This document shows positions 124 to 38,110 of a stretch of 39,210 nt of DNA, piece by piece. Origin of the DNA: a virus (taxonomy: Duplodnaviria > Caudoviricetes); the IMG/VR virus record IMGVR_UViG_3300032237_000117, positions 1-39,210 of that record. One strand, 5' to 3'. A program made the translations under genes and the position numbers. A model generated the notes under the pieces. That model was not told the DNA's origin. It was given only the letters and a program-made list of their open reading frames with translations, and did no database searches. The stretch's first letter is position 1, and every line of letters starts with the position of its first letter.

Positions 124-768
124 GGTTGAAGTAGATGAAAGTTGGCGTAGATCCTGATATCCCAAACCAGAGAAGTTAGCATCAAAAGATACGCTGTCTG
201 ATAGTGAGTACGAGTTGTATGGCAATACTAAATCATCAGCAGCGTACGCAATCTTTGGACCACGTTCGTAGTTGATAGATCCAAACGCTGTTGTTGTTGA
301 CTCAGTGATACCTGGCCATGTGTTTCCTACGCCGCCTGTACCTGTACCTGTGTAGCCAGTAATACGCTTAACACGGTGTGAAGTACCAACGCCCTTTTTA
401 CGGGGAATACGGTTACGTAGTGGTGTTGGACGTGGTGTGAGCAACTTTGCAGGTGCTTCCAAGTCAAACGCCGCGAATGATGTTGAGAGTGGTGATGTAA
501 GGCTAATGTCTTTCTGAATATCCTGCATAGCAAGACGCTGTGCTGAAAGAGCATTGTTCAATCCTGCAAGTGCGTCTGGAGCAAGTGACTTGCTGATAGC
601 AAGTTGCTCAAGTGCCTGCATTGGATCTACTGCTGGTGCTTGTCCTGGAACAGATGATGAGCGTGAGAGTGACTTACCAAGTTCAGTTGTGAACTCGTCC
701 ATCTTCACTGCTGCATCCATTGCAGATGAGTCACCAAACAGATCGGTAGCGCGTGGCATTTCCGCCAT
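1..768 (-). CDS. Major capsid protein, N-terminal part (continues at 39087 down to 38188; about 555 aa in total)
   Basis: Not in the ORF track. ATG at 768 with SD AAAGGA; translates without a stop (MAEMPRATDLFG...FDLEAPAKLLTPRPTPLRNRIPR...MLMEERMMLMARG) into ORF 38188..39198; lies downstream of the prohead protease. Confidence 0.85.
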   Translation of the reverse strand, partial: MAEMPRATDLFGDSSAMDAAVKMDEFTTELGKSLSRSSSVPGQAPAVDPMQALEQLAISKSLAPDALAGLNNALSAQRLAMQDIQKDISLTSPLSTSFAAFDLEAPAKLLTPRPTPLRNRIPRKKGVGTSHRVKRITGYTGTGTGGVGNTWPGITESTTTAFGSINYERGPKIAYAADDLVLPYNSYSLSDSVSFDANFSGLGYQDLRQLSSTSTLYATMLMEERMMLMARGTASGYSGALSAPTFTKASPAAATG

Positions 769-794
769 TTTGGTTCCTTTCGGGTTGGAGTTGA

Positions 795-3401
795 TTACTT
801 GTTAAGGTCTTTGTCTGCTTCAGCGATGAACTTATCCGCTAGCAGTTTGTATCCCTTAGCAAGTGTTGGGTCTGTTGTTGCTGCTGCTTTCGCTTTGTAG
901 GTAGCCGCTTTGATTAGCAAATCATTTGAAGTTTCTCCAACTGGCTTTGCTGTTCTACGTGGACCACCAGCCACCGCGAGAGATTTGGCAATATTCAACT
1001 CTGCTTCTAAGCCCACTGCTTTCTCCTGCGCTGCCTCTTTTGCAGCGACAAGGGAAGCAATCTCTGACTTGAGTGCCTTTGTTGCGCTATCAACCACTTG
1101 CTCTACTATGGCTTCAATATCCGCTGACTTATCATCATCGGAATTCTCTTTTGTTTCTTCAGGTAGTTCCTGATCTTCAAGTTCTGTGACTTCAGCAGAC
1201 TTCATTGCGCCGTCTGGTGAAACCATTTCAGCGGTTGATACATCTGAACGCCCGTGTGAGTCTTGCGGTACTCCGCAGCCGCACTCTAAGCACTTGTGTG
1301 TTTCTTCAACCGCTTCTTCAACAACCGCTTCATCCTCTGAAACTACTGTTTCATCTGGATCTGCTTCTTTGTCTGTTGTATGACCTTTGCACATCTTGTC
1401 GCCGCAACCGCCTGCTTTGCTGCACTTCATACAGCCGTCGCACTTGCAGTCCATTGTTGATTTATCAGCGTCAGCCGACATTTCAATAGTCTCTTCAATC
1501 ACTTCTTCAGGCACTTCTCCCTCTGCTTTCTCCCCTTCGTACCAAGCAAAGAGGTGGTGGACGGCTTCTAGGAGATGAGCCAACGACATTTCTTCATTGT
1601 GATTTCCTTCAGCCATTTCATTTGCTTCAATAGAGATCAAGTTTGCTAGCGCTGTACGAGCCATGTCGTAAGTCTTTTGATCAAACTTCAATAAATCAGG
1701 CGCAATGTAAGACTTTGAAACCTCAATTAATTCTTTGGCTGTCGTCATATCAAACTCCATTTCCGTAATATCCGATTGTAATGATTTCTTTGTCTTGGCG
1801 CGATACTTTCCGCCGCGCTTTTTGTATTCTCTGACCACCCAAGAGTTAGCAACAGCAGACGGATATACGTCAAACTTTTCTTTTGCTTCAGCCTTGACGC
1901 GGTTATACAGATCCTTGTCTGCTGGCTCTGAGCGCTCGCCGCCTTCAAGCATACCTTCGTAGTCTTGCTCTTTTTTTGTAATGTCGCCCTTAACAGATTT
2001 ACCTACGCTTGATGATACGTCTTGTAATGTTTTGCTAACCGCTTGAAGTTTCTTTCCAACCGCTTTTTGAGCGTCATTTACGCCGCGATCAACAAGAGTG
2101 TCGCCCGCATTTTTAAGTTTTTTGGAAGCGTTACCAACTTGCTCTTTATACATACTGTCGTTTGGTGCGCGCTTAGCCGCAGCCAAACTGTCTTTTGCTG
2201 AACTAATATCCTCTTGGGCTTCTTGAGTTACATCCGCTGATCTTTCTTGAATTTTAGTGCGAGAAGTTTCACCGTCTCCTTGAACTTTCTCGTTAGCAGC
2301 GTGCATTTCATTTTCCGCTTCGCCTACTTGTTTTGCTGCTGCTGCCCGCGTCTCTTCATGCTGCTCCGCTGCGCCACCGCCACCTTTTTTGGGCGCATGA
2401 GCCGCTTGGCTACCATGACCAGGGTGCTTTACAATCTCAATAAGATCCTCTACTTGGATCAAACTTTCTTCACCTTCAGCAGACTTAGCCAACATCAACT
2501 GGCAGTTAGGGTTTGCTGGGCGATCAACGAGCGATACTTCAACAATTTGTCCGTCCACAATACGCCCGTTGGAAGCAGCCTTGTCGCGTGTTACGCGCGG
2601 GTTCTTGATACCAATACTAAATCCCTTGAGTACGCCTGTCTCAACCTTCTTGACTGATACAGGATCTACTACGAGTGCAGATATGTAATGTCCGTCTGCT
2701 TTTGACTCATATTCTTTGGCTACGCCTGCTGCGATAGATGAGTGTTGTTCACGAATGTTGCCGCCTGACTTAAACCAAGCAGGCATAGCGCGGTTCAACC
2801 AATCTGAGTCGCAGATCTGCTGGTCAATATCAATGCTGTCGTCTGTTGCTTTGCCGTAAACAGTAAGAGTTCCGTCTGAGTTACGATCCGCCTTTTCAAT
2901 CCCAAAGTATGATGTTGTTAGATCGGTCATTGTTGATTTCTCCTTGTTTTCTTGTTCACGTATAACTCGTTTAGCCCAAGCCCAACCAGCGTCTCCGCCC
3001 CAGAGCAACCAAGCGATATAACCAGCGCTGTCTTTGCCCCAGCCTTCACCCTTTTTATCCACCTCATGGCGAGCAAAAAAAGAATTCATACGCTTGAGCG
3101 TGTCTAATGATAGCGCTGCGCCGTTGGATAGATCCCGCGCGCGAGCAACACCAACTTCAGTTCCGCCTCTGTTGTACTTTGCTCTTAATTCTAATCCGCG
3201 CTTTGCGTTTGATCGTACTCCCTGCGGTGGTACAAATCCTGCACTTTTGCCGATTTCTGGTTCGTTAATATACAACGCTGCTAATTGCTTCTTGGCTGCG
3301 TCTTTTGTATCGTGGCAGCCCATTACTGTGCCGTCGCTATCCTTGACTACTGGATAACCCTTGCAGCCGTAACTACCCTGCTCGCCAATGTGATAAGGCA
3401 T
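795..3401 (-). CDS. Multi-domain HK97-type prohead protease/scaffold protein
   Basis: Central domain has REQH, GFSIG and EVSLVDRPANP motifs of caudoviral prohead serine proteases; acidic/coiled-coil C-terminus; directly upstream of the capsid gene; likely start MPYH at 3401. Confidence 0.85.
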   Translation of the reverse strand: MPYHIGEQGSYGCKGYPVVKDSDGTVMGCHDTKDAAKKQLAALYINEPEIGKSAGFVPPQGVRSNAKRGLELRAKYNRGGTEVGVARARDLSNGAALSLDTLKRMNSFFARHEVDKKGEGWGKDSAGYIAWLLWGGDAGWAWAKRVIREQENKEKSTMTDLTTSYFGIEKADRNSDGTLTVYGKATDDSIDIDQQICDSDWLNRAMPAWFKSGGNIREQHSSIAAGVAKEYESKADGHYISALVVDPVSVKKVETGVLKGFSIGIKNPRVTRDKAASNGRIVDGQIVEVSLVDRPANPNCQLMLAKSAEGEESLIQVEDLIEIVKHPGHGSQAAHAPKKGGGGAAEQHEETRAAAAKQVGEAENEMHAANEKVQGDGETSRTKIQERSADVTQEAQEDISSAKDSLAAAKRAPNDSMYKEQVGNASKKLKNAGDTLVDRGVNDAQKAVGKKLQAVSKTLQDVSSSVGKSVKGDITKKEQDYEGMLEGGERSEPADKDLYNRVKAEAKEKFDVYPSAVANSWVVREYKKRGGKYRAKTKKSLQSDITEMEFDMTTAKELIEVSKSYIAPDLLKFDQKTYDMARTALANLISIEANEMAEGNHNEEMSLAHLLEAVHHLFAWYEGEKAEGEVPEEVIEETIEMSADADKSTMDCKCDGCMKCSKAGGCGDKMCKGHTTDKEADPDETVVSEDEAVVEEAVEETHKCLECGCGVPQDSHGRSDVSTAEMVSPDGAMKSAEVTELEDQELPEETKENSDDDKSADIEAIVEQVVDSATKALKSEIASLVAAKEAAQEKAVGLEAELNIAKSLAVAGGPRRTAKPVGETSNDLLIKAATYKAKAAATTDPTLAKGYKLLADKFIAEADKDLNK

Positions 3402-3403
3402 GA

Positions 3404-3685
3404 TTACGCTGAGTAAGTCACAATACAAGCGCCAGCCGCTGTTTGAGCCGCTGATATTGCGTAAACCTTATCTCCGCCGTTAAGCCATAACTGGAATGAA
3501 CTTGTTGTAGCCATTGGTCGCCCAATAGTCGCACCTGAAGTCGTGATTGTTGTATCGCCAATGTAGATAGCGGATGAGTGATTGTTGTAAATTTGAACCG
3601 CAATATTACGTCCAACGCTAACGGGTATATCAGCAATCAAGGTTGCTGTTGTTTGAACTTGGGTGTTAAAGTGTTTTAGCGCCAT
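3404..3685 (-). CDS. Small beta-rich virion protein (possible head decoration/spike)
   Basis: 93 aa (MALKHFN...), Thr/Ala/Ile-rich beta pattern, located in the head module. Confidence 0.5.
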   Translation of the reverse strand: MALKHFNTQVQTTATLIADIPVSVGRNIAVQIYNNHSSAIYIGDTTITTSGATIGRPMATTSSFQLWLNGGDKVYAISAAQTAAGACIVTYSA

Positions 3686-3686
3686 G

Positions 3687-3866
3687 CTATTCCTCAATCC
3701 ATTCTATCTTGACGTGAGATAAGGCTTGCTCAAGAGATTTGCTTACATTATCAGAAAGTAACGATAAGCCGCGCCTGTTTGCTTCATCAACCGCTAATGG
3801 ATCGCCTTCTTTAGCCGTAGCAAATATGATTTCATCAGGAAGCGCTTTGTAATATATTGCCGTCAC
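3687..3866 (-). CDS. Small hypothetical protein coupled to the MuF gene (possible immunity protein)
   Basis: GTG start overlaps the TGA of the MuF gene (GTGA); 59 aa. Confidence 0.45.
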   Translation of the reverse strand: MTAIYYKALPDEIIFATAKEGDPLAVDEANRRGLSLLSDNVSKSLEQALSHVKIEWIEE

Positions 3867-5524
3867 CAGCCGAACTCCTTTGCCATAGCCTGAGTCAACG
3901 GATTTTCCGAAGTACCCTTTGAATATATCCAATCAGCAAAACACTCAGCGTAAGCCTCAGCCGCGTCTGATTTACCGTATGTGCTTAGATATTGTCTGCC
4001 TTCTTTTTTAATAACCGCCTTGATTGCGTCATCTGCCATTTGATAAGAAAGAGATCCCGCTGGGTTCGCTTCAATAGAATGACCCCATTCGTGTGAAAGC
4101 GTGTATTTGATAGCAGAGTAATCTTTGCCCACAGGCATAAAAAATTTGTCGGGATCTGGGTGAGCGCCGCCAAGTTTGGCTTCATGATTAATCCAGATCA
4201 TCGCGCGCGCATAACTGTTTGGACGACCCTGCCAGCGCATAGCGCAAGCCTCAGTAGCGCTTGGTCTAGCCTTGGCAAGAGAGATCATTGTGTCGTTATC
4301 AACCATAAGTATTAAATTTTGAATTGGTTTTACGGCTTGCATTTCATCTACGGCTTTTAATATATCCGCAACAGGCGTCTGGGCTTTTTTGTTCATAATT
4401 ACAACAGTGCCGCCGTTAGTGTAAACAACTTTGTTGGCTCGCTGCTGCGTTGTCTTGCCAAGAAAAGATAAATCAGAATTGACCATGTAGGTAGGATCTT
4501 TTTTAGCAAACTCGCTTGGGGATATGAACGTATTTCTCATTTGCTCAGTTTGAGATCTACGCTGCTCACGTAGCGCGTCAAGCGCCGCCGTACCTTCTTT
4601 TGGTTTACTCCACTTCCCAGGCTTGTGTTCCCAAGCGGTCTGAGGCGTGTAAGGCTTTTTAACTTCAGGTTTCACTTCAGGCTTTGGCGTAGGTACTGTT
4701 ACAACACCGTGTTCAGTAGGCGCAGCGTATTCACTAAAGTCTGGTAGCAGCGCACAGCGACAATGAGGGTGCGCTGGCGGCTGCATATTGCCTGACGGGA
4801 ATGACTCACCCAATTTAATTACAACGCCATTGTTTGGCGCGCAGATTTCGCAAGCAACAGATCCGCCTGCAACCGCTAGAACGGTCATCCACTTCATTGA
4901 CTCAACGCCAGCGTCTTTGTATCGTGTTACGGCTGCTACGTTTAATACGCGGCTTGTCTCTGTGATAGCAATAGTTAGCGCGCGAGCAGGATTACCCACC
5001 GCATTGTTAATAAGTTTTGCCGCGCTTGTTGGAGACAATCCCAGTTCAATACTGTCTGCGAGCGCCGTACCAATACGATCCATACTGGTCTTGTCCATAC
5101 CCTTGAGAGCAATACCCATATCGTCAAGGATCTTTTGAAACGCCTTTGGTTTGCGCAACATAAGCGCTGCAACCTTGTCGCCTGCTTTCCACTTTGACCA
5201 ATCAACCGTACCTTGTACGGCTTTCATAGCCTGTCGCCCTTCAAACAAGGCTTCCCCTGCTGCGTCATCGCCCAACACCCAAGCCTCAGCCCAAAGTCGG
5301 ATCAACGCTGTTGCTAATGCGTCATTGTTAAATCTAATGTTCATGATCGCCCATGCGCGCGCGCGAGCGCGGTCTTGGGTCATGTTGCCTGAAGCGTGAG
5401 GTTGGCTCAACTGATAGTCGTCAAACAATTGCTTTGCGTCTATTGACTGTCGCAGCGCCGCCCTGATCTTAACTGCGTTCTGTGCTGCAACGCGCCCATC
5501 AACTTCGTGAGCGCCCCATTTCAC
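3863..5524 (-). CDS. MuF/SPP1 gp7-like head morphogenesis protein with C-terminal HExxH zinc metallopeptidase domain
   Basis: IAITETSR, CEIC and PPAHPHCRC MuF motifs; C-terminal HEWGH...STYGKSDAAEAYAECF; follows the portal gene. Confidence 0.85.
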   Translation of the reverse strand: MKWGAHEVDGRVAAQNAVKIRAALRQSIDAKQLFDDYQLSQPHASGNMTQDRARARAWAIMNIRFNNDALATALIRLWAEAWVLGDDAAGEALFEGRQAMKAVQGTVDWSKWKAGDKVAALMLRKPKAFQKILDDMGIALKGMDKTSMDRIGTALADSIELGLSPTSAAKLINNAVGNPARALTIAITETSRVLNVAAVTRYKDAGVESMKWMTVLAVAGGSVACEICAPNNGVVIKLGESFPSGNMQPPAHPHCRCALLPDFSEYAAPTEHGVVTVPTPKPEVKPEVKKPYTPQTAWEHKPGKWSKPKEGTAALDALREQRRSQTEQMRNTFISPSEFAKKDPTYMVNSDLSFLGKTTQQRANKVVYTNGGTVVIMNKKAQTPVADILKAVDEMQAVKPIQNLILMVDNDTMISLAKARPSATEACAMRWQGRPNSYARAMIWINHEAKLGGAHPDPDKFFMPVGKDYSAIKYTLSHEWGHSIEANPAGSLSYQMADDAIKAVIKKEGRQYLSTYGKSDAAEAYAECFADWIYSKGTSENPLTQAMAKEFGW

Positions 5525-7353
5525 GTCAAATACGCTTTCGCAAGTGCTTTGGCTGTATCAAGATCCCCGTCAAACGCGCAACGATTAAGTGCTTCACCAA
5601 CAATAGGATCTAATGACTTGAATTCAAATAGTCGTGCGCGCTTGCCCTTGCTCGCCCATTTCATAAACGCCTTAACTTCTGAAACAGTCTCTTCAGCCGC
5701 TTGTTCATTTTCTACTTCAGGGGTAGTCGGTTTAACTGCACCTTCAACCGCTGCTTCAGGGCTGGCTTCAGTCGGATTTGTAGTTGGGGTTGCAGCGTTC
5801 ACTATTCCCTCTGGCGTGAACAGATACAAGCCGTTGCCGCTTACAAGTATTGGCATATCCGCTTGAGGTGTATCCAATAGCGGCAAGCCTAACTCCGAGC
5901 GATGCTCATTGACTGTCTTTGCTCCAGATGTAACTTCAATTTGAGATTTGCGAGCATTGGCTTCATTGTCCATACGCCGTGAGGTCATTAACTTAAATTC
6001 TAATTCACGCGGCATACCCAAGTATGTGTAGCAAAGATTTGTGAGCGACTTGTTAAGCCAGTTCACAAGCGGTTGAGATCCAAGCGCTTCTGCTGTTTCA
6101 GCGCGCCCTTCTTCAAATCCAGCGCCACCCAATCCAGCCTTTGGAGCAAAACCAATTTCATTAGGCTGCACTCCAAAGTGTCCGCAGATAGATGTGATCA
6201 AGTAATCGTCAAGCGTGTCCTTAAACTTTTCGCCGTATCCGTCCATACCGACAGGAGACAATCCTGAAGGAAGTAGGCGAGCGCGCTTGCGCTGTTCTGT
6301 CTGCCCCGCTAGATCATCATTGAGAATATTTTCATACGCGCGCAATAGATCAGGGTTTGTTCCCCACTCAGCATCGGTTGTGAACATAAGATCAGGCATA
6401 ACGCCGTCTGTGTACTCAGCGCGTATCCATTGTTGGCGACGCAAGTAAATATCAGCAAGCGGTAGTGATCGTTCAACAGGTGAGTATCCGTAAACGCTTG
6501 TTGTGCGTCGGTTACGCACTAGGTAAGCCAAATCGTCTGAAGTGAATTCGCCGTCAGCCTTTGGGTCATCATCGTTTGATGAAAACTCTGCGCGCGGGAA
6601 GCCGTAAAGGATCTGCTGATAAGCAACTTCAGGTGATACAGGGCGCATACCGCGATCATCTAGCATTGGTTTGATAGTTGATCCGTCAAGGATCTGAAAC
6701 CCGTATAAATCACCGCCTACGGTCTTTTGCGGCCATATAGCAAGCGCGTCAATAACAAGGATCTCTTCAAGTGCAATCATTAACCAGTCAGCAAAAGTCA
6801 ATCCATTCTGACGATCAGGGTTTTCCCAAAAGGTTCTAATGCGGTTAATTTCATCGCTAAATTCTTCACGCGCTTTAGCCATAGCCCTGACGTGATCGCC
6901 GCCTGAAGCGGCAACAATTTTTTCTGAAGCATCGGAAGCCAAAACAATATCCCACTCAAGTCCAGATACTTTTGATTTGCTTACTTCAACGCAGCGACGC
7001 AATATGTCTATCTGATCTGCTGCTGCACGTAAAGTTTTGAAAGGTGTGAGGCGTGTTTCAGTAATGTTAATGTTTTGCGCTACTTGATATTCGTAGCGAC
7101 GTGGGGCTGGTCTCCCCGTTGCAGGATCTACTGGGTTAATCGCACCTGGAGTGATCGGTAGTCCTGGACCAAACGGAACCATAGCCATTGAAGGGTTGCG
7201 CGGTAGTGGAGTGCTGTTTCCGTAGGATTGTCCTATTGCGCCGCCTATTGAATTGCGCATATCTTGTTCACTCATTGTTACAGATCCAGCGGGTAGCGCT
7301 CGCTTTTCAATCTGCGTTGCTATCTGTTGTGCGATACGGTCAATTAGACCCAT
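5521..7353 (-). CDS. Portal protein
   Basis: 610 aa; YGYSPVE and ICGHFGVQPNEIG motifs, C-terminal TVNEHRSELGLP; between terminase and MuF. Confidence 0.9.
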   Translation of the reverse strand: MGLIDRIAQQIATQIEKRALPAGSVTMSEQDMRNSIGGAIGQSYGNSTPLPRNPSMAMVPFGPGLPITPGAINPVDPATGRPAPRRYEYQVAQNINITETRLTPFKTLRAAADQIDILRRCVEVSKSKVSGLEWDIVLASDASEKIVAASGGDHVRAMAKAREEFSDEINRIRTFWENPDRQNGLTFADWLMIALEEILVIDALAIWPQKTVGGDLYGFQILDGSTIKPMLDDRGMRPVSPEVAYQQILYGFPRAEFSSNDDDPKADGEFTSDDLAYLVRNRRTTSVYGYSPVERSLPLADIYLRRQQWIRAEYTDGVMPDLMFTTDAEWGTNPDLLRAYENILNDDLAGQTEQRKRARLLPSGLSPVGMDGYGEKFKDTLDDYLITSICGHFGVQPNEIGFAPKAGLGGAGFEEGRAETAEALGSQPLVNWLNKSLTNLCYTYLGMPRELEFKLMTSRRMDNEANARKSQIEVTSGAKTVNEHRSELGLPLLDTPQADMPILVSGNGLYLFTPEGIVNAATPTTNPTEASPEAAVEGAVKPTTPEVENEQAAEETVSEVKAFMKWASKGKRARLFEFKSLDPIVGEALNRCAFDGDLDTAKALAKAYLT

Positions 7354-7382
7354 GGTATCTCCTTGTTAGCGCCCCTTGTAGT

Positions 7383-7484
7383 TCAGGCTTCGGTAATGGT
7401 ATCAGGGTGGTCAATTATTTCAACAATATTGTTATTTGGCTTTGACTCGTCATAACCACCAAGTCCATAAATTACTTCTTTCAT
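7383..7484 (-). CDS. 33-aa microprotein (MKEVIYGLGGYDESKPNNNIVEIIDHPDTITEA)
   Basis: Below the ORF track cutoff; ATG overlaps the TAA of the fibre gene and the ORF fills the gap before the portal. Confidence 0.55.
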   Translation of the reverse strand: MKEVIYGLGGYDESKPNNNIVEIIDHPDTITEA

Positions 7485-8497
7485 TAGGCCACCCTTACTG
7501 CTACACGGAATGATTTTTGAGAGTCAGCCAATGTGCCAGCCGTTGCGAATGCGCCAGTTACGCTGTCTTGAGAATACGCTGGCAAGCCGTTTCCACCTGC
7601 TGCCACTCGTGGATAAAGGTTGTTAGTTACCGCGATGGTATCTGTGATTCCATAGAAGTTAGGAGTAGTTGCAGCGGTTTGCATATTGAAAGCAAGCCAA
7701 TACCACCCAGCACTAACCGCTTGAGAAATTGTTACTGTGTACGCTGTAGCAGCGGCAGTACAAGATACAGTTCCACCATCAACCAATACCGTAGATGGCA
7801 CACCACCGTTATCGTTGTAGATACCTAATCGCACCACCGCTGTGCCTGCAAATGTATTGATTGTAATTATCTGTAATCTGTCTATTGTTATTGCGTTAGG
7901 AATGTAAATCGGGTTATAGATAGTGCGATTGACAGTTGCAGCAGTTGAAGCCGTAGCATTGATGTTTGAGTAATAACTGCTGGAACGAAATGGCAAGAAT
8001 TGAAACTTGGCTGCGCCAGTATCATAGGCAGTTTTCACACTGTTAGGCGTTGCCGCTGTTGTAGTTGATGTTGATGAAGTTGAGTCAGTCAGTTGTAATA
8101 CTCCAGCAGCGGAAGTTGAACCTGCTGATACTGAAAGATTTGCAGACGATGAAGTGCCAGCATTTGTGATTGGCGCATTAACCGCAATTACTCCAGAAGT
8201 GCCATTAGTTCCGTTAGTGCCGTCTGCACCTTTGATACCTTGTGGAATACCGAAGTTGAAAGTCGCTGCACTACTTGTACCTGAATTGTTTACTGTTGCC
8301 GATGAACCAGCAGCCAATGTAGTCGTAGTTCCGACAGCGATAGTTGCAGCAGATCCGTTTGTGCCGTTGGTTCCATTAGTGCCTGCGTCGCCTTTAGCGC
8401 CTTGTGGTCCAGGGCTAGCAACTTGGACATTGGTTACATCTGGAGTTACCGTGACGCTATTTGTAACAGGTTGAACGACAATTACATCGTTGCTCAT
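7484..8497 (-). CDS. Fibre protein with collagen-like GXY repeats and a phage tail-fibre repeat
   Basis: GPQGAKGDAGTNGTNGTNG repeats; GVLQLTDSTSSTSTTTAATPNSVK resembles the tail-fibre repeat; beta-rich C-terminal head. Confidence 0.75.
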   Translation of the reverse strand: MSNDVIVVQPVTNSVTVTPDVTNVQVASPGPQGAKGDAGTNGTNGTNGSAATIAVGTTTTLAAGSSATVNNSGTSSAATFNFGIPQGIKGADGTNGTNGTSGVIAVNAPITNAGTSSSANLSVSAGSTSAAGVLQLTDSTSSTSTTTAATPNSVKTAYDTGAAKFQFLPFRSSSYYSNINATASTAATVNRTIYNPIYIPNAITIDRLQIITINTFAGTAVVRLGIYNDNGGVPSTVLVDGGTVSCTAAATAYTVTISQAVSAGWYWLAFNMQTAATTPNFYGITDTIAVTNNLYPRVAAGGNGLPAYSQDSVTGAFATAGTLADSQKSFRVAVRVA

Positions 8498-29654: not shown

Positions 29655-30581
29655 TTACGCGAATTTAGTTTGCGATGTAAAAACTGTATAAGTTGGAGTT
29701 GCTGCTGTTTTGACCACTGTGTACACATAAGCATCAATGCTTGAAGCATTACCAGATGAATAAGCAGTTCCACCTTGATACTTCGGCGTTACCGCAGATC
29801 CGTCAATTTGTAGTGCGTTATTGTAGTAAGCGGTTGCTCCGTTTGTATTTAGAAAAGTTACAGTAATTGCGTCGCCTACGGCAAGAATTGAACTGAGCGT
29901 AGCCGTTGCGCTTGCGCGTATATTCAAAGTCCAGTTGGCGCTTGCGTTTGTTGTGTAATAAAGAACGCCTTGAGTTGAAGCGTCATAGTTAATTGTTCCT
30001 GTTGCGGCTGTCGCTGAAACTGTTGTGCGTTCCTCTGGAGAAATAAGTGTTTTACTTGATAACGCTTGCACGCCAGTAGGCGTTACAAAAGAGGTTGAGG
30101 ACAAAGTTCTAGTATCAGTTATATTAGCCGTAAGAATAGATGTAACCGAAGTTCCAACCAAGATTGTCGCTAGTGAAATTGAGTTTGTGGGAATTGCTGG
30201 TGCGGTAGGAGACGCGGCTGGCGTTCCCGCTAGTACTTGAAACGCAACCTGATTAAGCGTTCCCGTGTAATAAGAGTCAGATACAGTCATAACAATACGG
30301 TCAATACGCGGGTTTGAACCGCTTGCCGTAGTGATAGTTAAGTTTTGAACAGCGTCATTGTAGGCTACGTATGCTCCCATGTTGGTAGCGTAATCTCCAA
30401 CAATTGCAGCCCAACCAATCGCTACGTTCACGCTCATATTTGGAGTTCCGTTTTGCGTGACCGCTAAATCGGTGGAACCAAGAATGCCCGTTGTACGCCA
30501 TAAACCTTGAGTAGTAAGGCGGTCATTTTCAGCAGGGTGAGATGCGTTCTGCTGCCAACTTGGGGGTGTACGTAATACCAT
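29655..30581 (-). CDS. Minor tail protein / receptor-binding candidate
   Basis: NPRIDRIV...P..SISLA.I.V N-terminal domain; beta-rich C-terminal domain. Confidence 0.7.
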   Translation of the reverse strand: MVLRTPPSWQQNASHPAENDRLTTQGLWRTTGILGSTDLAVTQNGTPNMSVNVAIGWAAIVGDYATNMGAYVAYNDAVQNLTITTASGSNPRIDRIVMTVSDSYYTGTLNQVAFQVLAGTPAASPTAPAIPTNSISLATILVGTSVTSILTANITDTRTLSSTSFVTPTGVQALSSKTLISPEERTTVSATAATGTINYDASTQGVLYYTTNASANWTLNIRASATATLSSILAVGDAITVTFLNTNGATAYYNNALQIDGSAVTPKYQGGTAYSSGNASSIDAYVYTVVKTAATPTYTVFTSQTKFA

Positions 30582-30590
30582 TGTTTCTCC

Positions 30591-31703
30591 TTAGATGAAC
30601 GCTGAACGCCAAGATACAGTAGCAGCAGTCGTGCCTGCAAGTGTACCCGAACCAGTTAGATAGAAAGAGTTATTACCAGGCGCAGCGCCGTACCAAGTTG
30701 AAGTTCCTGCTACTAAATTGCGAGCCGCAGCACCGTTTACTGTAATCAATTTAGAGTCAAGATCAATAACCACGCTATCGGTGTTGGAGTACGATCCTGT
30801 AACTGTAATATAATTGCCTGTTGTTGAGTTACCTACTGTGGGGTTCAATATTGGACCATTTAAGGTAATTACGGGATAAGTGGTTGCCCAGCCATTATTA
30901 GTCACGGTTGTTGTAGCGCCTGATGAACCATATCCGTAAACAAGATTGTAAATACGATTGTAAGTACGCCCCAAAGCGTTAGATACGGTTAATGAAGCGG
31001 TCTGAAGTGTGTCGTTATATACGCGTGGATCTGGACAAAAAAATGTGTAACTTGATTTGATGTAACCAAAAGTATATTCAGGGTCTAATGAAGTCATATT
31101 GCCGCGTACGCGCGCATTGACTCTTTGAAGCACGTCAGATCCGCTTAATTGGAATTGCAACGGGGTAGTGCCTGTCGTCTGAGGTAGGAGTGCGCGCTGA
31201 AGTAGATTGTAGTTAGCCTGAGCGCTTGAACTCATGGTCATTGTTCCGCCAGAAGTCCGAGTATCCGTCAAAACAACAGCCAGCGTAAATTGGGTGGTAG
31301 ATGTAACAGTACAAGCCAAGTTTGTCTGGTTAAACCCAGTTCCTGCTGTTCCTGAAGGGTTGCCCGTAGAGATAACGCCAGTTATTGTAACTTTTTGTCC
31401 AGTTACAAGCCCGTGTGCGGTTGAAGTCGTATAAGTGATAACGCTTGTACCAGTTGCAGAAGCGGCTGAAATAGACGCTGTGCTGCTGCTAGCCAAAGTA
31501 ACGATAGACATAGTAATTGTGCGACCAGCCAAGAAGTCATTACCAGAGAACATTCCGTCTGAGTAGCCTCTGTTGTCGTCTTGGTTACGTATCGCAGGAA
31601 GTGCCTCAAGCCCTTGAACATCGGATATTGGGTGCGCAGATCCCGCACCAAACACGTAATCGTTCCAAGCGAAAGAGTAATTACTTAATGAAGTTACGGT
31701 CAC
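30591..31703 (-). CDS. Distal tail (Dit)-like protein with inserted beta domain
   Basis: Follows the tape measure; FFCPDPRVY and PGNNSF Dit motifs; insert TTSTAHGLVTGQKVTITGV. Confidence 0.7.
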   Translation of the reverse strand: MTVTSLSNYSFAWNDYVFGAGSAHPISDVQGLEALPAIRNQDDNRGYSDGMFSGNDFLAGRTITMSIVTLASSSTASISAASATGTSVITYTTSTAHGLVTGQKVTITGVISTGNPSGTAGTGFNQTNLACTVTSTTQFTLAVVLTDTRTSGGTMTMSSSAQANYNLLQRALLPQTTGTTPLQFQLSGSDVLQRVNARVRGNMTSLDPEYTFGYIKSSYTFFCPDPRVYNDTLQTASLTVSNALGRTYNRIYNLVYGYGSSGATTTVTNNGWATTYPVITLNGPILNPTVGNSTTGNYITVTGSYSNTDSVVIDLDSKLITVNGAAARNLVAGTSTWYGAAPGNNSFYLTGSGTLAGTTAATVSWRSAFI

Positions 31704-34195
31704 AATAAAGCCTGACTCTGCGCGTATCTCATACCGATACTTCCAACTGAACCAAATTTAATAGCGCTCACAGTAGCAGAGGTTATGTCGGCTGCGCTGG
31801 TTTGTCCGTTAATGTTATTGGTCTGTTTAATTACAATTTGCGGATTGTCGTTTTGAGCAAAAGGATTTTCTGTTGCTCCGCCCCCAAGTGGAGTAACACC
31901 AGCAAGATAAGGCGCGGCAGGAGATCCCGCCGTGATAGATACGGCTGCACTCTTGCCTGAAAGTTCTGCAATTTTAGCGGCTGTTTTAGCCAATTCATCT
32001 TGAAGTGTTTTTAACTTATCCATTGTGTCTTTTTCAAGTTCGGTAATGGCTGCGTTGAAATCTGCTTGCGCTTCAAGTAAAGCGTCTTTCAAATTGGTCG
32101 CTTCTTCATCAAGCGCTGCGCGCAAGTTTGAGTTAATGTTGCTTAAAGTATCTTCAAGTTGAACCGCGACATTGTTGTACTCGTCCATAAGTTCTTGAGT
32201 AGCAAAACTTGTTGATGTACTCATCTGCTCAGCGAGCGCGTCAAGTCCGTATTTGCTTACATCCTCAAGCCCGTAAAACACTTCTTTTAGCCCAGCCTGA
32301 ACTTCTGGAGATGAACTCAGTATCGCAGCAGCCATTTCTGACCCTACTCCTGGTCCATTTTTTACTATCTCTTGAATAAAAGTCTGTGAAAATCCTGCTG
32401 ATGCTAACGCGTACGCTTGGTCTTTCAATCTCTTAATAGAAGCAAACTTGCCTTTCATCATACTTAAAAGATTTGCCCCTGATTTGTCTGTGTCCTTAAA
32501 CATCTCAGCAAGATCAAACGCCGCGCCAGTGGCAAACGCGTTGCGCAGCATGTCTTGACCTTTTGCGATAATGTTTATTCGGTCATTTGCGGCTTTTATT
32601 TCCGCAGCGTTGCGATCTTCAAACGCTTTGTTTTCAAGCGCTGCAACCTTTTTGGCTGAGTCAGCCTTGAGTTTAAGTACCTTGTCGTCGTAAGCGGCTG
32701 TAATCTTGACGCGCTTCTCGCCTGAGTCGGATATAACTTTATCCATTTTGTCGTATGTCTTTTGAACATCGTCGTATAGTTTGGCGAGCGCATCTGCTTT
32801 TTTCTTTGCAGCAGCAGCAATTTCTTTCGCTGTCGCTTTACCGCCGCCACCGCCGCCGCCACCGCCGTTTGCGACTGATTTGGAGTCAAACGCAGATCCA
32901 GACAAACCAAGCGCTGCATTACTTGTGCTTTGAGCCTGTTTGACCTTGCCTACGTTCAAAGCAAATTCTTTCATATTGTCTGAAGCGCCGCGTATGGCTT
33001 TTGCTACGCCGTCAAATTTGCTTCCAATGCCAGGGATCTTGCTTGCCGCTTCAAATACAGTAGCAATAGCGCCGATGAATTGACCAAGCGCTCCAACCAT
33101 AGCCGAGAATATTGTGTTGATTGCTTTTCTGAACGCGTCGCTGCGCTTGTATAGTTCGTACAAACCAACAGCAACTGCACCGATAGCAATAGCAATAGCA
33201 ACAAACGGGTTGATCGCTAAAACAGCGTTCAAAGTAGCCGTAGCAATTTTTGCAGCATTGACCGCCAGCGTATAAACGCCCCAACCAGCGGCAAACGCAA
33301 GTACAGCAATAGTAAATACCTTCACGTCATCGCCGTGTTTAGCAAGCAAGTTACCAAACGCCGCTAGTCCAGAAATAAGTGGTTTCATAATTAGCAAGAT
33401 TGCTTGGAACACGGGAAGCAATCCAGCGCCCAAAGCCGCTTTTGCGTTCTCCATTTGCGCCTGAAGGATCTTCATTGTGTTGGCAGTACCGCTTGATGTG
33501 CGCTCAAAGTCTCCCTGAGCCAATTTTGTTTGTTCCATTACCAGCGCGTATGTAACTTGAGCCTTGATCGCTGGATCCATAGCGCCCTTGATCTCACCAA
33601 AGCCCATAGCCATAGCCTTGTTCTTGAGAGTTACATCGTTGAGTGCTACGCCAAATCTCTTCAATGGTTCTGTCTCGCCCGATAGCCCAGAGCGCAGCGC
33701 GTTGATAGCATCTTCAACGGAAGTGTTGTTGAAGGAAGCGAGATCGCCAGCCAATTTAACAAGCGTGGTGGACATTTCAGTTGCTTTACCTTGACCCACG
33801 CCAAACGCTTGAAAGAGATTGCCGTATGTACCAGCGGCTTCAATCGCTGCTTGCTTTGATATACCGATACTTGTAGCCGACTTGTTACCAAATTGTTCAA
33901 CCGCGTCTGCGTTTTCGCCAAACACTACGTGCATTTTAGAAAGCGACTCGTTCATATTGCTTGCCGCCATAACAACATCTTTGCCAAATTGAACCACTTG
34001 GGTTGCAGCAAAAGCCACGCCCATAGCGCCCGCCATACGCTTAGCATTAGCAATCATATTGCTCATGCCTGTTGAGGCTGTTTTGACTGATCCATCTAAG
34101 CCCTTGACGCTTGCTTCAGCCTGAGCCATACCTGCTTTAAGTTGAGCAACATCGGCTTGGATCTGAACCAAAATTGGGGGAATTGCGCTCGCCAT
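31700..34195 (-). CDS. Tape measure protein
   Basis: 831 aa, Ala-rich helical, GETEPLKRFGV motif, hydrophobic central region. Confidence 0.9.
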   Translation of the reverse strand: MASAIPPILVQIQADVAQLKAGMAQAEASVKGLDGSVKTASTGMSNMIANAKRMAGAMGVAFAATQVVQFGKDVVMAASNMNESLSKMHVVFGENADAVEQFGNKSATSIGISKQAAIEAAGTYGNLFQAFGVGQGKATEMSTTLVKLAGDLASFNNTSVEDAINALRSGLSGETEPLKRFGVALNDVTLKNKAMAMGFGEIKGAMDPAIKAQVTYALVMEQTKLAQGDFERTSSGTANTMKILQAQMENAKAALGAGLLPVFQAILLIMKPLISGLAAFGNLLAKHGDDVKVFTIAVLAFAAGWGVYTLAVNAAKIATATLNAVLAINPFVAIAIAIGAVAVGLYELYKRSDAFRKAINTIFSAMVGALGQFIGAIATVFEAASKIPGIGSKFDGVAKAIRGASDNMKEFALNVGKVKQAQSTSNAALGLSGSAFDSKSVANGGGGGGGGGKATAKEIAAAAKKKADALAKLYDDVQKTYDKMDKVISDSGEKRVKITAAYDDKVLKLKADSAKKVAALENKAFEDRNAAEIKAANDRINIIAKGQDMLRNAFATGAAFDLAEMFKDTDKSGANLLSMMKGKFASIKRLKDQAYALASAGFSQTFIQEIVKNGPGVGSEMAAAILSSSPEVQAGLKEVFYGLEDVSKYGLDALAEQMSTSTSFATQELMDEYNNVAVQLEDTLSNINSNLRAALDEEATNLKDALLEAQADFNAAITELEKDTMDKLKTLQDELAKTAAKIAELSGKSAAVSITAGSPAAPYLAGVTPLGGGATENPFAQNDNPQIVIKQTNNINGQTSAADITSATVSAIKFGSVGSIGMRYAQSQALL

Positions 34196-34196
34196 G

Positions 34197-34640
34197 CTAT
34201 CCCCTCACTACTTTAATAAAAGCCGCAGTAAATATACGGCTAAGTGTACCGTTCTTGGACAAACTATCCGCCGCTGGCGTTAAATAAGGGAACTTTACGC
34301 CACTTTTCCAGACAGGATTACCTAATTCAATAGCGCGCGCATACTCAGCGCCAGATCCGATTACCGCGCTGTAACTTTTGAAACCTTTGATTGGTCGCTC
34401 AGCCCTAATGTTATTTACAAGGTTGCCTGTAACTACGTTTGGACCTTCACCAGTGCGTGGTCCAATGTGCGGTTGTCCAGCCGCGTGAGATCCTGTATTT
34501 GCGTTTGTTTTTGCTTGACCTTCAATGGCTAGTGCAGCCTGCCAAGTAGCAGTTAAAGCGGCAGCGTCAATTCGTTCATCAGTGATATCAAAACCTTTTA
34601 ACACTTCAGCAAGGTTTGTAACACTTATGCGACCACTCAT
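34197..34640 (-). CDS. HK97 gp10-like tail completion protein
   Basis: TGNLVNNI...EYARAIELG...PYLTPA; start MSGRIS. Confidence 0.75.
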   Translation of the reverse strand: MSGRISVTNLAEVLKGFDITDERIDAAALTATWQAALAIEGQAKTNANTGSHAAGQPHIGPRTGEGPNVVTGNLVNNIRAERPIKGFKSYSAVIGSGAEYARAIELGNPVWKSGVKFPYLTPAADSLSKNGTLSRIFTAAFIKVVRG

Positions 34641-34857
34641 GTGTCCAGCCGTTCTGCCCTCACCTTGTCTATGGTAGTACCAATCGCCAACAACCAATCG
34701 GCTGTTGTGGCGGGCAAATCATCTACCTGATCTGGCGTCCAGCCAAAGCGATCAGCCATTTGATAGTAAAACCATTGTTCATCAGGATAGTCAAAGTCAG
34801 TATGTCTATGACCGCCCTCAAGCAAAAACTTTAGGCGTTGGAGTCGCCTGTAATCGC
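34637..34857 (-). CDS. Tail assembly chaperone, frameshifted extension (gpGT-like)
   Basis: Open -1 frame from the slippery site to 34637; MADRFGWTPDQVDDLP. Confidence 0.65.
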
Positions 34858-35184
34858 TTTTGGGTCTGCCTCATTCTGATCTGTTTCAGACAGGCTTGGG
34901 AACAAAGATTTTTGCGCTTCTTGAGTCTCTGAAACAAGGAAGTCGTAGTCTTTCATCTCAAGTTCGTCAAGGCTATCAATCTTGATTGACGGAATAAGTA
35001 GATCAAACGACCACTCTTCAATCAACATAGCCAATAACGCGTCACCCAATGCGAGCGCTTTTGATAGATCGCCCTCAGCCTTATCTGCTGCGCGCATTAC
35101 GTTCTTGCGATCCTTGACGCGTAGTTGCGCTGGATCTTTTAATGTAACAGTTGCGCCTGACGGCAGTTTAAGTGTTCTTTTCAT
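34831..35184 (-). CDS. Tail assembly chaperone (gpG-like)
   Basis: Between major tail and tape measure genes; SD AGGAGG. Confidence 0.75.
   Translation of the reverse strand: MKRTLKLPSGATVTLKDPAQLRVKDRKNVMRAADKAEGDLSKALALGDALLAMLIEEWSFDLLIPSIKIDSLDELEMKDYDFLVSETQEAQKSLFPSLSETDQNEADPKAITGDSNA
34858..34864 (-). other. Programmed -1 frameshift slippery site C CCA AAA
   Basis: X XXY YYZ heptamer near the end of the chaperone gene joins it in frame to the downstream ORF. Confidence 0.7.
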
Positions 35185-35221
35185 ACTTGCCTCCTAGTGT
35201 TTGCCTTCGCTTATCCTACAA

Positions 35222-35292
35222 GATAGGGCATTGGGGCGCGAGATTGCGGGAAGGCGTACGCAATCAACCTGACCGCCCCAATGCTTGATCTA
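35222..35292 (-). promoter_or_regulatory. Structured intergenic RNA element (nested stem-loop, possible pseudoknot)
   Basis: GCATTGGGGCG/CGCCCCAATGC outer stem and GATTGCG/CGCAATC inner stem. Confidence 0.55.
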
Positions 35293-36279
35293 TTACTGGT
35301 AAGTACCAGATGCTTTGGCGTTCTTTAGTTCCCACTTAATTGGTGAGTAACCAGAGGTTGCGCCAGCGTCGGTTGTGTTTGCTTGACCATTGATATCAAT
35401 AGTAATCTGAACAAAATCAGCGCTGCGCTCAATAGCGGCTGCTACATAAGCACCCTTTGTAAGAGTTGCTTTAACTCCAACAAGCGCTGCACCTGTTCCA
35501 GAAGTCCAGTTGAATACAAGCGCTGGCTGAGTATTAGTTAGGAAGCGAGTTAGTTCTGTGTTTGCTTCCATAACAAACGTAACCTTGCCTGTTACTTCAA
35601 GTGGTCCAACAAATACGTTGAACGGGTTTTGAGTATTGCTAATGCCGTAGATAGGGGTTACTGGGCGCTTCATATCAATGTTGCCGCTGATAGCGTTGCT
35701 TACAGTAGATCCTGCGACAGATACAGTTCCTGTCCAGACTGGCTGAGGTAGCACAGCGCTGAAAGAAGGAGTAGGTGTAGCGGCTGAGGCTGAAGCCCAA
35801 CCAGTTGCCTTAGTGTCGTACTGAAGCAATCCGTCAGCATTAAACTTGAGTGAGAAATCGCTGATCTGAATACCTGCGTATGCGCGAACATCTGCTGCGT
35901 AGAAATCAGTTAGCGTGAAAGATGTTGGTTGAACATCTGAGCCTGTTGAAGCGCCGTTTTCTACAGAGATTGTGTGAGTGTAAGGCGCTGAAGCACCTAC
36001 TGTAGCCACGTCACCAAGCAAACCAGCGATTGGATAACCAATAGTGTCTGCGAATACAGCGCCACCAAAGTCAAAAGTTGAACGGGTGCGCCCTGGGATG
36101 TAAGCGTAATTGACTACGTTAGATCCGCGAAGCCCTTGATCGTAGAGCGGGTCAATGATATCTACTGGCTTGAGAGTATCAACCATGACGGGAATAAAGT
36201 CAGTAGGTGTTACTGCTGTTCCCTTTGTTGCTTCTTTAGCAATACCTAAGTAACTGCGTACGGATGCTTGAACTGACAT
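35293..36279 (-). CDS. Major tail (tube) protein
   Basis: 328 aa, YLGIAKE.T.GTAV.PT N-terminus; followed by the chaperones. Confidence 0.85.
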   Translation of the reverse strand: MSVQASVRSYLGIAKEATKGTAVTPTDFIPVMVDTLKPVDIIDPLYDQGLRGSNVVNYAYIPGRTRSTFDFGGAVFADTIGYPIAGLLGDVATVGASAPYTHTISVENGASTGSDVQPTSFTLTDFYAADVRAYAGIQISDFSLKFNADGLLQYDTKATGWASASAATPTPSFSAVLPQPVWTGTVSVAGSTVSNAISGNIDMKRPVTPIYGISNTQNPFNVFVGPLEVTGKVTFVMEANTELTRFLTNTQPALVFNWTSGTGAALVGVKATLTKGAYVAAAIERSADFVQITIDINGQANTTDAGATSGYSPIKWELKNAKASGTYQ

Positions 36280-36449
36280 TACTTCACCTCATCTACTGTT
36301 GTGTCTGGCGCGGCAGACTTTGCTGGTGTTGGGATTGACTGTGTTGGTTGAACAAAGTCTTTTGGTGCGTCAAACTCATCGCCTGACTTAACGGTAATTC
36401 CAAGCGTAGGGAACACACGCTCATCTTCACCTGTGTATTTGATCTTCAT
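36279..36449 (-). CDS. 56-aa hypothetical protein (MKIKYTGEDERVFPTLG...)
   Basis: Not in track; SD AGGAG, TAATG coupling to the major tail gene. Confidence 0.6.
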   Translation of the reverse strand: MKIKYTGEDERVFPTLGITVKSGDEFDAPKDFVQPTQSIPTPAKSAAPDTTVDEVK

Positions 36450-36456
36450 ATCTCTC

Positions 36457-36945
36457 CTATGCTTGGATCATTTCGGTTGCGTCAAATTCTATCTCAGCAA
36501 AGATTTCCGTAGCGCCTTCTTTGCTTGTTACAGGCTCGCCGTACCTTGCGCGGATCTGAGGCTCAGCGCCCTGCCACACTAAAGTGCCTGTTGAGTCACC
36601 GAAGTTATGGTCTGAACGTAGTCTTGTTTTGATTGCGTCCACCAGTGTATCAAAATCAGTCATACAATCTTCAGCGTTTCTTTGTAGTGAGTGCTGGTAT
36701 ATCTGAACAATGATTGTGTAATCAACGCGTTTCCAGCCGTTGGTTGCGCCGCCAATAGCAATACGACTTTCTGTCTCTGAGGCGATAAAGATTACGGCGG
36801 CAGCGCGAGACATCTGACCCGCTGTTGCCCCTACTTGAAAATCAATACGCTTTGGGAACGAAGTAAATACTTGATTGAGATTTGTAATTGCGGGAGTAGA
36901 TAAGAACGAATACAGCGTAGCCCGTACGCCAGTACGCCCTGCCAT
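36457..36945 (-). CDS. Tail terminator / head-tail joining protein
   Basis: Position and size; acidic beta C-terminus. Confidence 0.6.
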   Translation of the reverse strand: MAGRTGVRATLYSFLSTPAITNLNQVFTSFPKRIDFQVGATAGQMSRAAAVIFIASETESRIAIGGATNGWKRVDYTIIVQIYQHSLQRNAEDCMTDFDTLVDAIKTRLRSDHNFGDSTGTLVWQGAEPQIRARYGEPVTSKEGATEIFAEIEFDATEMIQA

Positions 36946-37832: not shown

Positions 37833-37834
37833 GG

Positions 37835-38110
37835 TTATTCTCCGTCTCGCTCAGGCGTTCCGTTGGTGTGACCGCATCTTGAACACTTGCGGAACCAAGA
37901 TCCAAAGCCACATTCTACGCAAGTAAAGCCTCTTGTGGCGTCGCCTTGAGTATAAGGGCTAAGTGTTGCTTCAAAAAATCCTTCTGACTTCATTGCGCGC
38001 GCTGCACTAGCACTTTCTACGTTATAGATCCCGCCTTTGTCTGGTCTATACGATACGCCGCCCACGTCAGTTATCTTCACGCCTTTGTCTGGTGCTACCA
38101 ATCTTGCCAT
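37835..38110 (-). CDS. Zn-ribbon hypothetical protein
   Basis: CVECG...CSRCG; SD GAAGGAG. Confidence 0.65.
   Translation of the reverse strand: MARLVAPDKGVKITDVGGVSYRPDKGGIYNVESASAARAMKSEGFFEATLSPYTQGDATRGFTCVECGFGSWFRKCSRCGHTNGTPERDGE

Follow-up and report, generated by a model that had tools for sequence, protein, structure and literature searches.

The DNA analysed here (the window) is the whole 39,210-nucleotide IMG/VR virus record IMGVR_UViG_3300032237_000117. It derives from a tailed phage whose host likely belongs to freshwater Actinomycetota; a relative with a 78% identical terminase (L217; G and L numbers are our own handles for genomes and loci) was binned in an Actinomycetota genome. 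Nearly all genes lie on the minus strand, and a family scan of the 61 open reading frames identified terminase, portal, tail tube and WhiB proteins. Our subject is a predicted thymine-modification cassette with a TET/JBP-family dioxygenase, and the hexamer RGATCY (R, purine; Y, pyrimidine), of which the phage holds about three to five times more than chance. The cassette, made up of ParB, TET/JBP, amino acid:DNA transferase (AADT) and P-loop kinase genes, is preceded by a small helix-turn-helix (HTH)-like gene, and the terminase genes follow directly downstream (8852..10577; Table 1).

Table 1. Coordinates of the cassette, its neighbours and the sites in the window
Feature	Position	Strand	Basis or details
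Record IMGVR_UViG_3300032237_000117	39,210 nt, complete		123-base terminal repeat
ParB-like protein, 226 aa, first cassette gene	12872..13552	-	PF02195 30.4 bits, cut-off 26.3
TET/JBP-family dioxygenase (by family), 291 aa	12010..12885	-	PF12851 43.6 bits, cut-off 34.9
TET residues 73-89, predicted β-hairpin with IRQSTGLKN (76-84)	12619..12669	-	model strands 73-76, 83-89
AADT (aGPT-Pplase2), 295 aa	11123..12010	-	PF18724 74.6 bits, cut-off 26.2
P-loop nucleotide kinase 3, 177 aa	10580..11113	-	PF18751 94.3 bits, cut-off 27
Terminase small subunit, likely, by position	10089-10577	-	gene order
Terminase large subunit	8852-10216	-	PF03237 and PF17289
AGATCC, 59 sites	149..38031	+	149, 277, 1909, 2443, 3130, 4052, 4859, 5561, 6076, 7282, 8351, 8554, 8702, 8982, 9299, 9629, 11298, 11409, 13208, 13239, 13512, 13827, 14402, 14701, 16237, 16471, 16814, 18486, 19301, 19439, 20237, 20889, 21573, 22212, 22885, 23272, 24632, 24947, 26444, 26920, 26986, 27217, 27671, 27861, 28770, 28869, 29796, 31137, 31638, 31922, 32894, 34353, 34488, 35707, 36121, 36991, 37194, 37898, 38026
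GGATCT, 34 sites (AGATCC on the - strand)	623..36557	+	623, 1357, 2662, 4152, 4494, 5128, 5606, 6609, 6690, 6759, 7124, 9405, 10262, 10733, 10767, 11275, 11803, 14793, 15231, 17985, 19075, 20064, 21207, 24361, 25171, 25742, 26188, 27151, 31027, 33034, 33466, 34159, 35132, 36552
Remaining palindromic RGATCY, 7 sites	2813..33578		AGATCT 2813, 4553, 15288, 17348, 23228, 24052; GGATCC 33573

The cassette and its sites

Family scores above the cut-offs for AADT (PF18724, also present in 64 of 64 AADT homologues) and for the P-loop kinase (PF18751) assign the cassette to the 5-hydroxymethyluracil (5hmU) kinase/AADT type, and the kinase is likely a 5hmU-DNA kinase. Domain, invariant residues and modelled fold place the TET protein among the TET/JBP dioxygenases, with a predicted oxidation activity. 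Residues H176, D178, H226 and R240 are invariant in 19 relatives; we take them to be the HxD...H iron ligands and the 2-oxoglutarate arginine. The model (predicted local distance difference test, pLDDT, 75.6) has TET2, NgTET1, CcTet and CMD1 as its top fold matches (TET2-DNA: Z 16.3, root-mean-square deviation 3.7, 239 aligned; NgTET1-DNA: Z 15.8, 3.6, 208 aligned). A helix at residues 255-279, modelled at low confidence, may represent the C-terminal extension beyond the conserved core that marks ParB-dependent enzymes. The ParB-like protein is likely the activator of the dioxygenase, by analogy to the ParB-dependent T-dioxygenases (PMC13229309), and the gene-neighbourhood marks of that subclass are seen in the window: an adjoining ParB, a kinase and AADT nearby, and no neighbouring C5 methyltransferase. 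Neither a methyltransferase nor a dUMP hydroxymethylase family was found among the 61 open reading frames, the TET occupying the place of the latter, and the window contains no restriction enzyme.

The preliminary description of this DNA had reported an excess of the asymmetric hexamer AGATCC/GGATCT, with about 90 sites (59 and 34) where about 19 were expected from base composition. These figures are confirmed: the plus strand carries exactly 93 sites (59 AGATCC and 34 GGATCT, the last at 38026-38031) versus 19.0 expected, and six AGATCT. The AGATCC and GGATCT positions that it quoted are exact, but the single GGATCC lies at 33573, not 33553. AGATCC ranks only third under an order-0 Markov model and is the top hexamer under order-1 (93 versus 10), order-2 (93 versus 21) and maximal-order (93 versus 51) models. 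The codon-preserving shuffle that had been named as a possible refutation left the excess in place: coding DNA holds 88 sites versus 18.0 ± 4.0 when amino acids and codon usage are kept (maximum 32 in 1000 shuffles) and versus 26.7 ± 4.4 when next-base context is kept as well, which rules out codon or codon-pair bias as the cause. As had been described, the sites occur in both orientations and several frames. They occupy four main frame classes (5 of 93 are intergenic), the two strands fill 31 of 97 (32%) and 59 of 168 (35%) synonymous opportunities, and 36 of 98 Gly-Ser pairs are written GGA TCT. No conserved flanks were found around the 93 sites. Their spacing is more even than random (coefficient of variation 0.72 versus 0.98, p 0.0008; p 0.009 against opportunities). 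The longest site-free gap, 1405 bp (11803-13208), spans the TET gene, and the TET genes of 10 cassette genomes together hold 15 RGATCY in 8.9 kb, versus 2.2-4.6 per kb genome-wide.

Avoidance of other words was built into capped null models. With 34 avoided words capped, 90 sites in coding DNA compare with 25.5 ± 4.4; with 289 words capped, the harshest null, they compare with 30.9 ± 4.8. Compensation for avoided words is thereby ruled out for the window. An origin with no selection at all, whether as a side effect of the avoidance of neighbouring restriction words or through biased mutation or repair, has some footing: at least 7 of 18 one-mismatch neighbours of the site are rare words, lowering loss in both groups of relatives compared below, and such by-products exist, since the CTCCAG excess of the cultured phages Phaedrus, Prince, Wooper and Kozie, considered as a parallel case and rejected, mostly vanishes under the capped null. 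Besides the capped counts, the increase in gains for both transitions and transversions, seen at several positions (see below), speaks against it, as do the undepleted T-to-C source words of the window, GGATTT (30 versus 29.5) and AGATTT (24 versus 27.7). This origin is largely refuted for the window, and as a general explanation we give it hardly any credence; it may explain the residual excess of cassette-less relatives.

Several other candidates were rejected. An assembly or adapter artefact does not fit their location inside intact genes or their presence in relatives obtained from separate samples. The sites turn over (cassette relatives whose synonymous distance is saturated retain 44-66% of them) and so are not fixed functional positions. 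Vsr-like T-to-C creation fails on the undepleted source words and the many types of gain, and a Chi-like recombination motif on the absence of polarity (32% versus 35% filled on the two strands) and of host enrichment. A search for unrelated RGATCY-rich viruses, with 120 loci chosen for AGATCC clusters and the 69 of at least 5 kb scored, gave a maximum of 2.8-fold, and none of the 69 carried a TET.

The selected word

The target had been described as the asymmetric hexamer; that reading does not hold. The selected unit is RGATCY. In G017, G018, G025 and L217 all three RGATCY forms are enriched 2.8-5.2-fold, with other GATC words near expectation. Close pairs of genomes conserve the four inner bases; in the palindromic forms, by contrast, substitution at the outer positions, where an R-to-R or Y-to-Y change leaves RGATCY intact, runs close to the neutral rate. 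The asymmetric look of the site in the window arises because its lineage purged the two palindromes. Their counts are low, as had been noted, but GGATCC (1 of 139 opportunities) and AGATCT (4 of 120) are purged rather than merely unenriched; AGCT, TCGA and others are likewise purged. Host six-cutters that the proposed mark does not block would have driven the purge of GGATCC and AGATCT. Additive recognition of each strand was rejected, as half-sites stand at 0.9-1.3-fold in G000 and G023.

Two further GATC patterns were seen. GATC in G021 and G022 is nearly confined to GGATC/GATCC, as if one context were shielded from a GATC cutter. G024 (L200-L201) has 896 GATC in 37.5 kb; the excess is 2.2-fold whatever the context, or 1.4-fold once avoided words are capped. 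ParB, TET and kinase are present at this locus and no transferase was found there.

Relatives, hosts and cultured phages

Gains and losses of RGATCY were counted in 12 disjoint pairs from cassette lineages and 7 cassette-less pairs, each pair being counted both ways (the fragments L082, L086 and L087 were placed by terminase clade). Cassette pairs gained 112 sites versus 56.0 expected (2.0 times neutral) and lost 249 versus 388; cassette-less pairs gained 33 versus 33.7 (1.0 times neutral) and lost 77 versus 120. The gains in cassette pairs are spread over many substitution types, transitions as well as transversions, at several positions, and control hexamers gave ratios of 0.70-0.98 with one exception (1.76). 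Together with the codon shuffle and the capped nulls, the gain excess bears out the earlier claim of positive selection at the DNA level rather than codon bias: the sites are selected, and more strongly with the cassette. The companion expectation, that relatives with the cassette are enriched and others are not, is upheld for gains, but cassette-less relatives keep a 1.4-2.6-fold excess. With avoided words capped, 10 complete cassette genomes stand at 2.3-4.2-fold. The near-complete L338 and L340, with no TET match, reach 1.2-2.0-fold. Part of the cassette-less residue may be background, because the unrelated cassette-less actinophages D29, TM4 and PG1 stand at 1.3-1.9-fold.

Another phage protein, such as the terminase, an HNH protein or a small DNA-binding protein, might read RGATCY, for instance in recognizing phage DNA at packaging; the link to the TET hairpin described below would then reflect shared ancestry. 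It would account for the residual excess without the cassette and for the mostly depleted state of non-excess lineages, as though restriction had outweighed a widespread pull toward the word, and few independent contrasts support the hairpin. We nevertheless judge it distinctly unlikely: only the transferase family is confined to rich genomes (332 clusters in 29 sequences, AADT2 counted), gains in cassette-less pairs do not exceed expectation, rich lineages are dispersed over the terminase tree, and much of the residue may be the background seen in D29, TM4 and PG1.

A separate word distinguishes some of these genomes. GATGG/CCATC, tabulated for the window, G014-G018, G023, G025, L020 and L051, occurs at 0-0.2 of expectation in 8 of 8 complete RGATCY-rich genomes of the window TET clade as well as in L020 and L051; 13 cassette-less relatives, by contrast, have ratios of 0.8-1.1, and G021/G022 a ratio of 0.9.

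Among cultured phages, Rhodococcus phage Tonitrus and Gordonia phage Wooper (PMC11955845; PP978825, OP910132) have the same gene order ahead of the terminase. Tonitrus is 47% identical to the window in TET and 39% in AADT; the hairpins of both phages differ from that of the window, and in the part of the report available to us the thymine hypermodification cassette is predicted only. Tonitrus has GGATCC 70 versus 21 (capped null) and is not rich in AGATCC (19 versus 17). Cluster B3 mycobacteriophages have a genome-wide, about fourfold GATC/GGATCC excess, left unexplained in the available part of its report (Siranosian et al. 2015, PMC4841201). The cluster member Phaedrus (GGATCC 76 versus 21, surviving the capped null) carries a ParB, PAPS reductase, ParB cassette ahead of the terminase; it has the palindromic form of the word and a GC-rich genome. 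The ParB-linked cassettes of Phaedrus (L296, 73-2606) and Tonitrus (L297, 1-3764) are different, and both phages are GGATCC-rich.

RGATCY is not over-represented in host-group chromosomes, and no conserved host methyltransferase was found there. AGATCC occurs 172 times versus 157 expected in actinobacterial genomes (331 kb, 14 small genomes). Its density is 0.26-0.91 per kb across 81 genomes from a single order and does not exceed about 0.75 per kb in a sample of 251 from the class; the latter sample includes seven unpublished genomes, on which the range does not depend. The window has 2.38 sites per kb. Methyltransferases of the D12 type, the N6/N4 type and one C5 type were detected in just 3 of 93, 6 of 93 and 2 of 390 genomes. 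These genomes may not include the true host, are mostly incomplete and lose defence islands, which makes absence weak evidence. In the available part of a lake study no methylated motif was seen in 7 actinobacterial bins (PMC6329791).

These data bear on a host origin of the excess, in which host strains methylate RGATCY (as N6-methyladenine (6mA), N4-methylcytosine or 5-methylcytosine (5mC)) and marked sites pass as self or supply the TET with 5mC, the cassette amplifying or accompanying the effect. Host 5mC as the TET substrate had been the alternative offered by the preliminary description; a matching C5 methyltransferase is the enzyme detected in only 2 of the 390 genomes. The excess that remains without the cassette in three subclades is consistent with it, as is the shared GGATCC excess of Phaedrus and Tonitrus despite their different cassettes. 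RGATCY systems probably exist among the hosts, because other lineages (G011, G012, G020, G029 and G030) specifically purge the word, and in G160 a C5 methyltransferase lies beside a BglII/BstYI-family nuclease. In the sources as available, RGATCY methyltransferases are known (PMC10734518), AGATCC/GGATCY carries 6mA in Sulfolobus (PMC5809426), and phage 5mYOX enzymes oxidize 5mC about as well as T (PMC13229309). The flat host genomes, the rarity of the methyltransferase types searched and the lake bins in which no methylated motif was seen point the other way. Moreover, the set of avoided words varies greatly among RGATCY-rich cassette phages (G016 and G018 versus G000), although they fill the same third of opportunities, and a host origin does not predict the hairpin link. 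We regard a host origin as unlikely, though it is the alternative we take most seriously. RGATCY restriction-modification systems (BstYI, MflI, R/M.Nph3I; PMC10734518) share the degenerate word but predict avoidance, whereas the window shows an excess, with neither methyltransferase nor restriction enzyme. A scan of 96 accessory proteins revealed no phage methyltransferase common to the rich genomes.

The G160 enzyme (L507, 173-2175) is possibly Sau3AI-like. A 59% identical methyltransferase in G190 (L519, 1468-3599) lies beside an unannotated 279-aa gene.

The TET hairpin and a proposed mechanism

The preliminary description had linked the sites to the TET/kinase/transferase set. That link is supported and can be narrowed to one hairpin of the TET, but the cassette alone is insufficient: an AADT was called at 32 TET loci, of which 22 are rich in the word and the other 10 lack the excess. 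The alignment columns that best separate rich from other loci (76, 82 and 83 of 291) fall within a β-hairpin predicted just ahead of the SRTFG strand. Counting loci of about 5 kb or more, and identical TETs once, 26 of 26 loci with the hairpin [IL]RQ[SN][TS]GL[KR]N are 1.9-7.4-fold enriched in AGATCC (pooled 1300 versus 322), and 2 of 52 loci with other hairpins reach 2.5-fold (pooled 278 versus 383). Among 59 TET loci fetched later, all five with the hairpin are at least 4.5-fold enriched and 48 of 50 with another hairpin are at or below 1.8-fold, the remaining two being 2-kb pieces; four were unreadable. The hairpin was masked for tree building; on the resulting tree three lineages carry it (the window clade, G021/L043 and L058/L575), and it changes four times, the trait five times. 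Neighbours on this tree with another hairpin (L020/L026, L027/L028, L046/L047, L050 and L060) lack the excess. In L020/L026 and L027/L028 the cassette is complete and the TETs are about 80% identical; in our account they probably lack the excess because their hairpin is another one. The IRQSTGLKN hairpin is thus a candidate determinant that may set the RGATCY preference. By eye it matches the end of a variable insertion reported as essential in the accessible part of PMC13229309. The sequence match to NgTET1 is limited to residues 196-253, too little to place the hairpin on that structure.

Loci with other hairpin classes favour words of their own under the capped null (AAGCTT 107 versus 36, AGCTGC 177 versus 66, CAGCTG 98 versus 48; AAGCTT class G020, G032 and L033, AGCTG class G013, G033, L566 and L569). 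Other AGCT contexts are mostly avoided in these classes, and L035 has no AGCT at all. In the gain test the AAGCTT class shows 8 gains versus 4.6 and the AGCTG class 9 versus 10.6, too few events to be informative. GATAC was rejected as a target of the L020 hairpin; its excess is probably compensation, because the word is raised in most GATC-free phages. At L585, a GC-rich TET-AADT locus with the hairpin LRGYSGLRN, TAGCT is about sevenfold over expectation at 13 sites only. We raise tentatively, as a possibility we hold doubtful, that ParB-cassette phages shift the whole genome toward the word of their enzyme and that the TET hairpin is an exchangeable specificity switch (IRQSTGLKN for RGATCY, possibly KRQSLGIEN for AAGCTT and KRAxTGMEN for AGCTG words).

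parS-type sites are long palindromes in a few clustered copies. The window has 93 dispersed hexamers with no conserved flanks and no longer palindrome, and ParB is found in many loci that lack the excess; we therefore consider it very improbable that RGATCY is a parS-like loading site from which the cassette ParB delivers the TET nearby. ParB is the first cassette gene, and some of its alignment columns too separate rich from other rows, but these lie in a gapped, poorly aligned region. Aravind and colleagues had suggested that ParB has such a directing role (cited in PMC8256090).

RGATCY is most likely the target of the cassette, which is of a known kind. The mechanism we put forward, and rate somewhat above an even chance, is that a TET variant prefers RGATCY and marks about 1% of T, and that weak selection multiplies the marks. 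The ParB-activated TET/JBP dioxygenase would oxidize the central T of each RGATCY strand to 5hmU, the kinase would phosphorylate 5hmU, and the transferase would then attach an amino acid; the chemistry of these steps is taken from the available parts of PMC13229309 and PMC8989533. The substrate would be T rather than host-methylated C, marked at about 1% of T (200 of 20,744), with one site per 400 bp. The T of GATC suits such a cassette, since the kinase/transferase pathways described so far modify T in TG and TC (PMC6449724). TCGA, AGCT and CTGCAG are absent from the window, and GAWTC and TGACA almost so. This continued avoidance of T-containing sites makes sparse T modification probable; blanket modification lifts avoidance in coliphages (PMC6286503). 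Each mark would give a small benefit, with scaled selection of about 1.5 as estimated from the gain ratio. We speculate that the likeliest benefit is a dispersed roadblock to host enzymes travelling along the DNA and the second-likeliest, given the adjoining terminase, help in packaging. Local shielding of type II restriction sites was rejected: in 10 cassette genomes residual avoided sites overlap RGATCY 34 times versus 59 expected, and lie within 10 bp of it 117 times versus 173 (simple positional expectation). The benefit is probably not local, because residual restriction sites do not cluster beside RGATCY.

The closest described systems are the clade C1 ParB-dependent T-dioxygenases (O'Toole et al. 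2026, PMC13229309), which like the window have ParB beside TET/JBP, a kinase and AADT, and no C5 methyltransferase, and which oxidize T post-replicatively, as would the window enzyme. By eye, none of the sequences compared there is close to the window actinophage subfamily. Its authors suggested longer contexts for their low-activity ParB-dependent enzymes; no genome enrichment of targets was seen in the available part. The 5hmU kinase/AADT pathways of M6, ViI and PaMx11 (PMC8989533, PMC6449724, as available) use the same transferase and kinase families at TG/TC contexts, but there 5hmU is built into all DNA at replication and up to half of T is modified, whereas in the window it would be sparse and come from the dioxygenase.

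Several points weigh against the proposed mechanism. The hairpin was chosen after the fact; it has 2 well-supported independent contrasts (4 over all branches), too few for significance, and the 5 new positive loci all come from the window's own clade. Zero AGATCC occurs in 25 of the 52 negative loci, which test little because its absence is probably forced by host restriction; many negatives lack GATC altogether. L051 (5.9-fold) and G024 (2.6-fold, with all GATC raised) have other hairpins. The two characterized enzymes prefer YTY and NTR only, not a hexamer (PMC13229309, available part). Five cultured phages with TET and kinase do not share the excess in full: Tonitrus is GGATCC-rich only, Wooper is close to neutral, and RGATCY has been purged from Prince, Phelemich and Kozie. 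In GGATCC-rich Phaedrus no TET was found in the 50 of 68 kb read. Among relatives, site loss is equally slow with and without the cassette (0.64 of neutral in both), and with avoided words capped 7 complete genomes without TET still stand at 1.4-2.1-fold. Two cassette-less fragments of about half completeness, L352 and L353, reach an unexplained 2.4-2.6-fold, and under the harshest null the groups overlap (cassette 1.7-3.1, cassette-less 1.0-2.7). Host and cassette are confounded, because cassette-bearing and cassette-less groups avoid different restriction words. Even spacing of RGATCY is significant in only 4 of 10 cassette genomes.

Phages shed restriction sites; the family described here gains a site under selection, in contrast to the usual loss. 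If the proposed mechanism is true, the TET would be a thymine dioxygenase with hexamer preference, a potential tool for site-specific DNA labelling, and genome composition alone might reveal the targets of uncharacterized modifying enzymes. The more doubtful reading, in which whole genomes shift toward the word of their enzyme and the hairpin is an exchangeable switch, could also explain the GGATCC excess of B3 mycobacteriophages. Whether phage T-dioxygenases modify specific sites or blanket the genome, and why they act post-replicatively, are questions that recent studies have left standing; to these our findings supply a target word, a nine-residue candidate determinant and natural variants to swap. 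The cassette itself is already known. What appears unreported is that its target is positively selected and that the hairpin tracks the excess: a literature search, outside which most subscription papers lay, turned up no account of a phage modification target under selection, of freshwater actinophages with an RGATCY excess, or of a link between hairpin and trait.

The stretch separating the HTH-like gene from the terminase small subunit (10580-13552 in the window) is an exchangeable slot across relatives. It may hold TET, AADT and kinase, with or without an FAD oxidoreductase (added in many relatives, as in PaMx11); TET with a TAGT glycosyltransferase or with unannotated genes (clusters c10-c11, c30); ParB with Mom; or a ParB-N6/N4 methyltransferase fusion; or it may be empty. 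A scan of viral contigs for AADT gave 2 loci only. Elsewhere in the window, an 877-aa head gene (795-3428) contains a DUF5872 piece and a cysteine-rich stretch and has relatives in 25 of 25 genomes tabulated.

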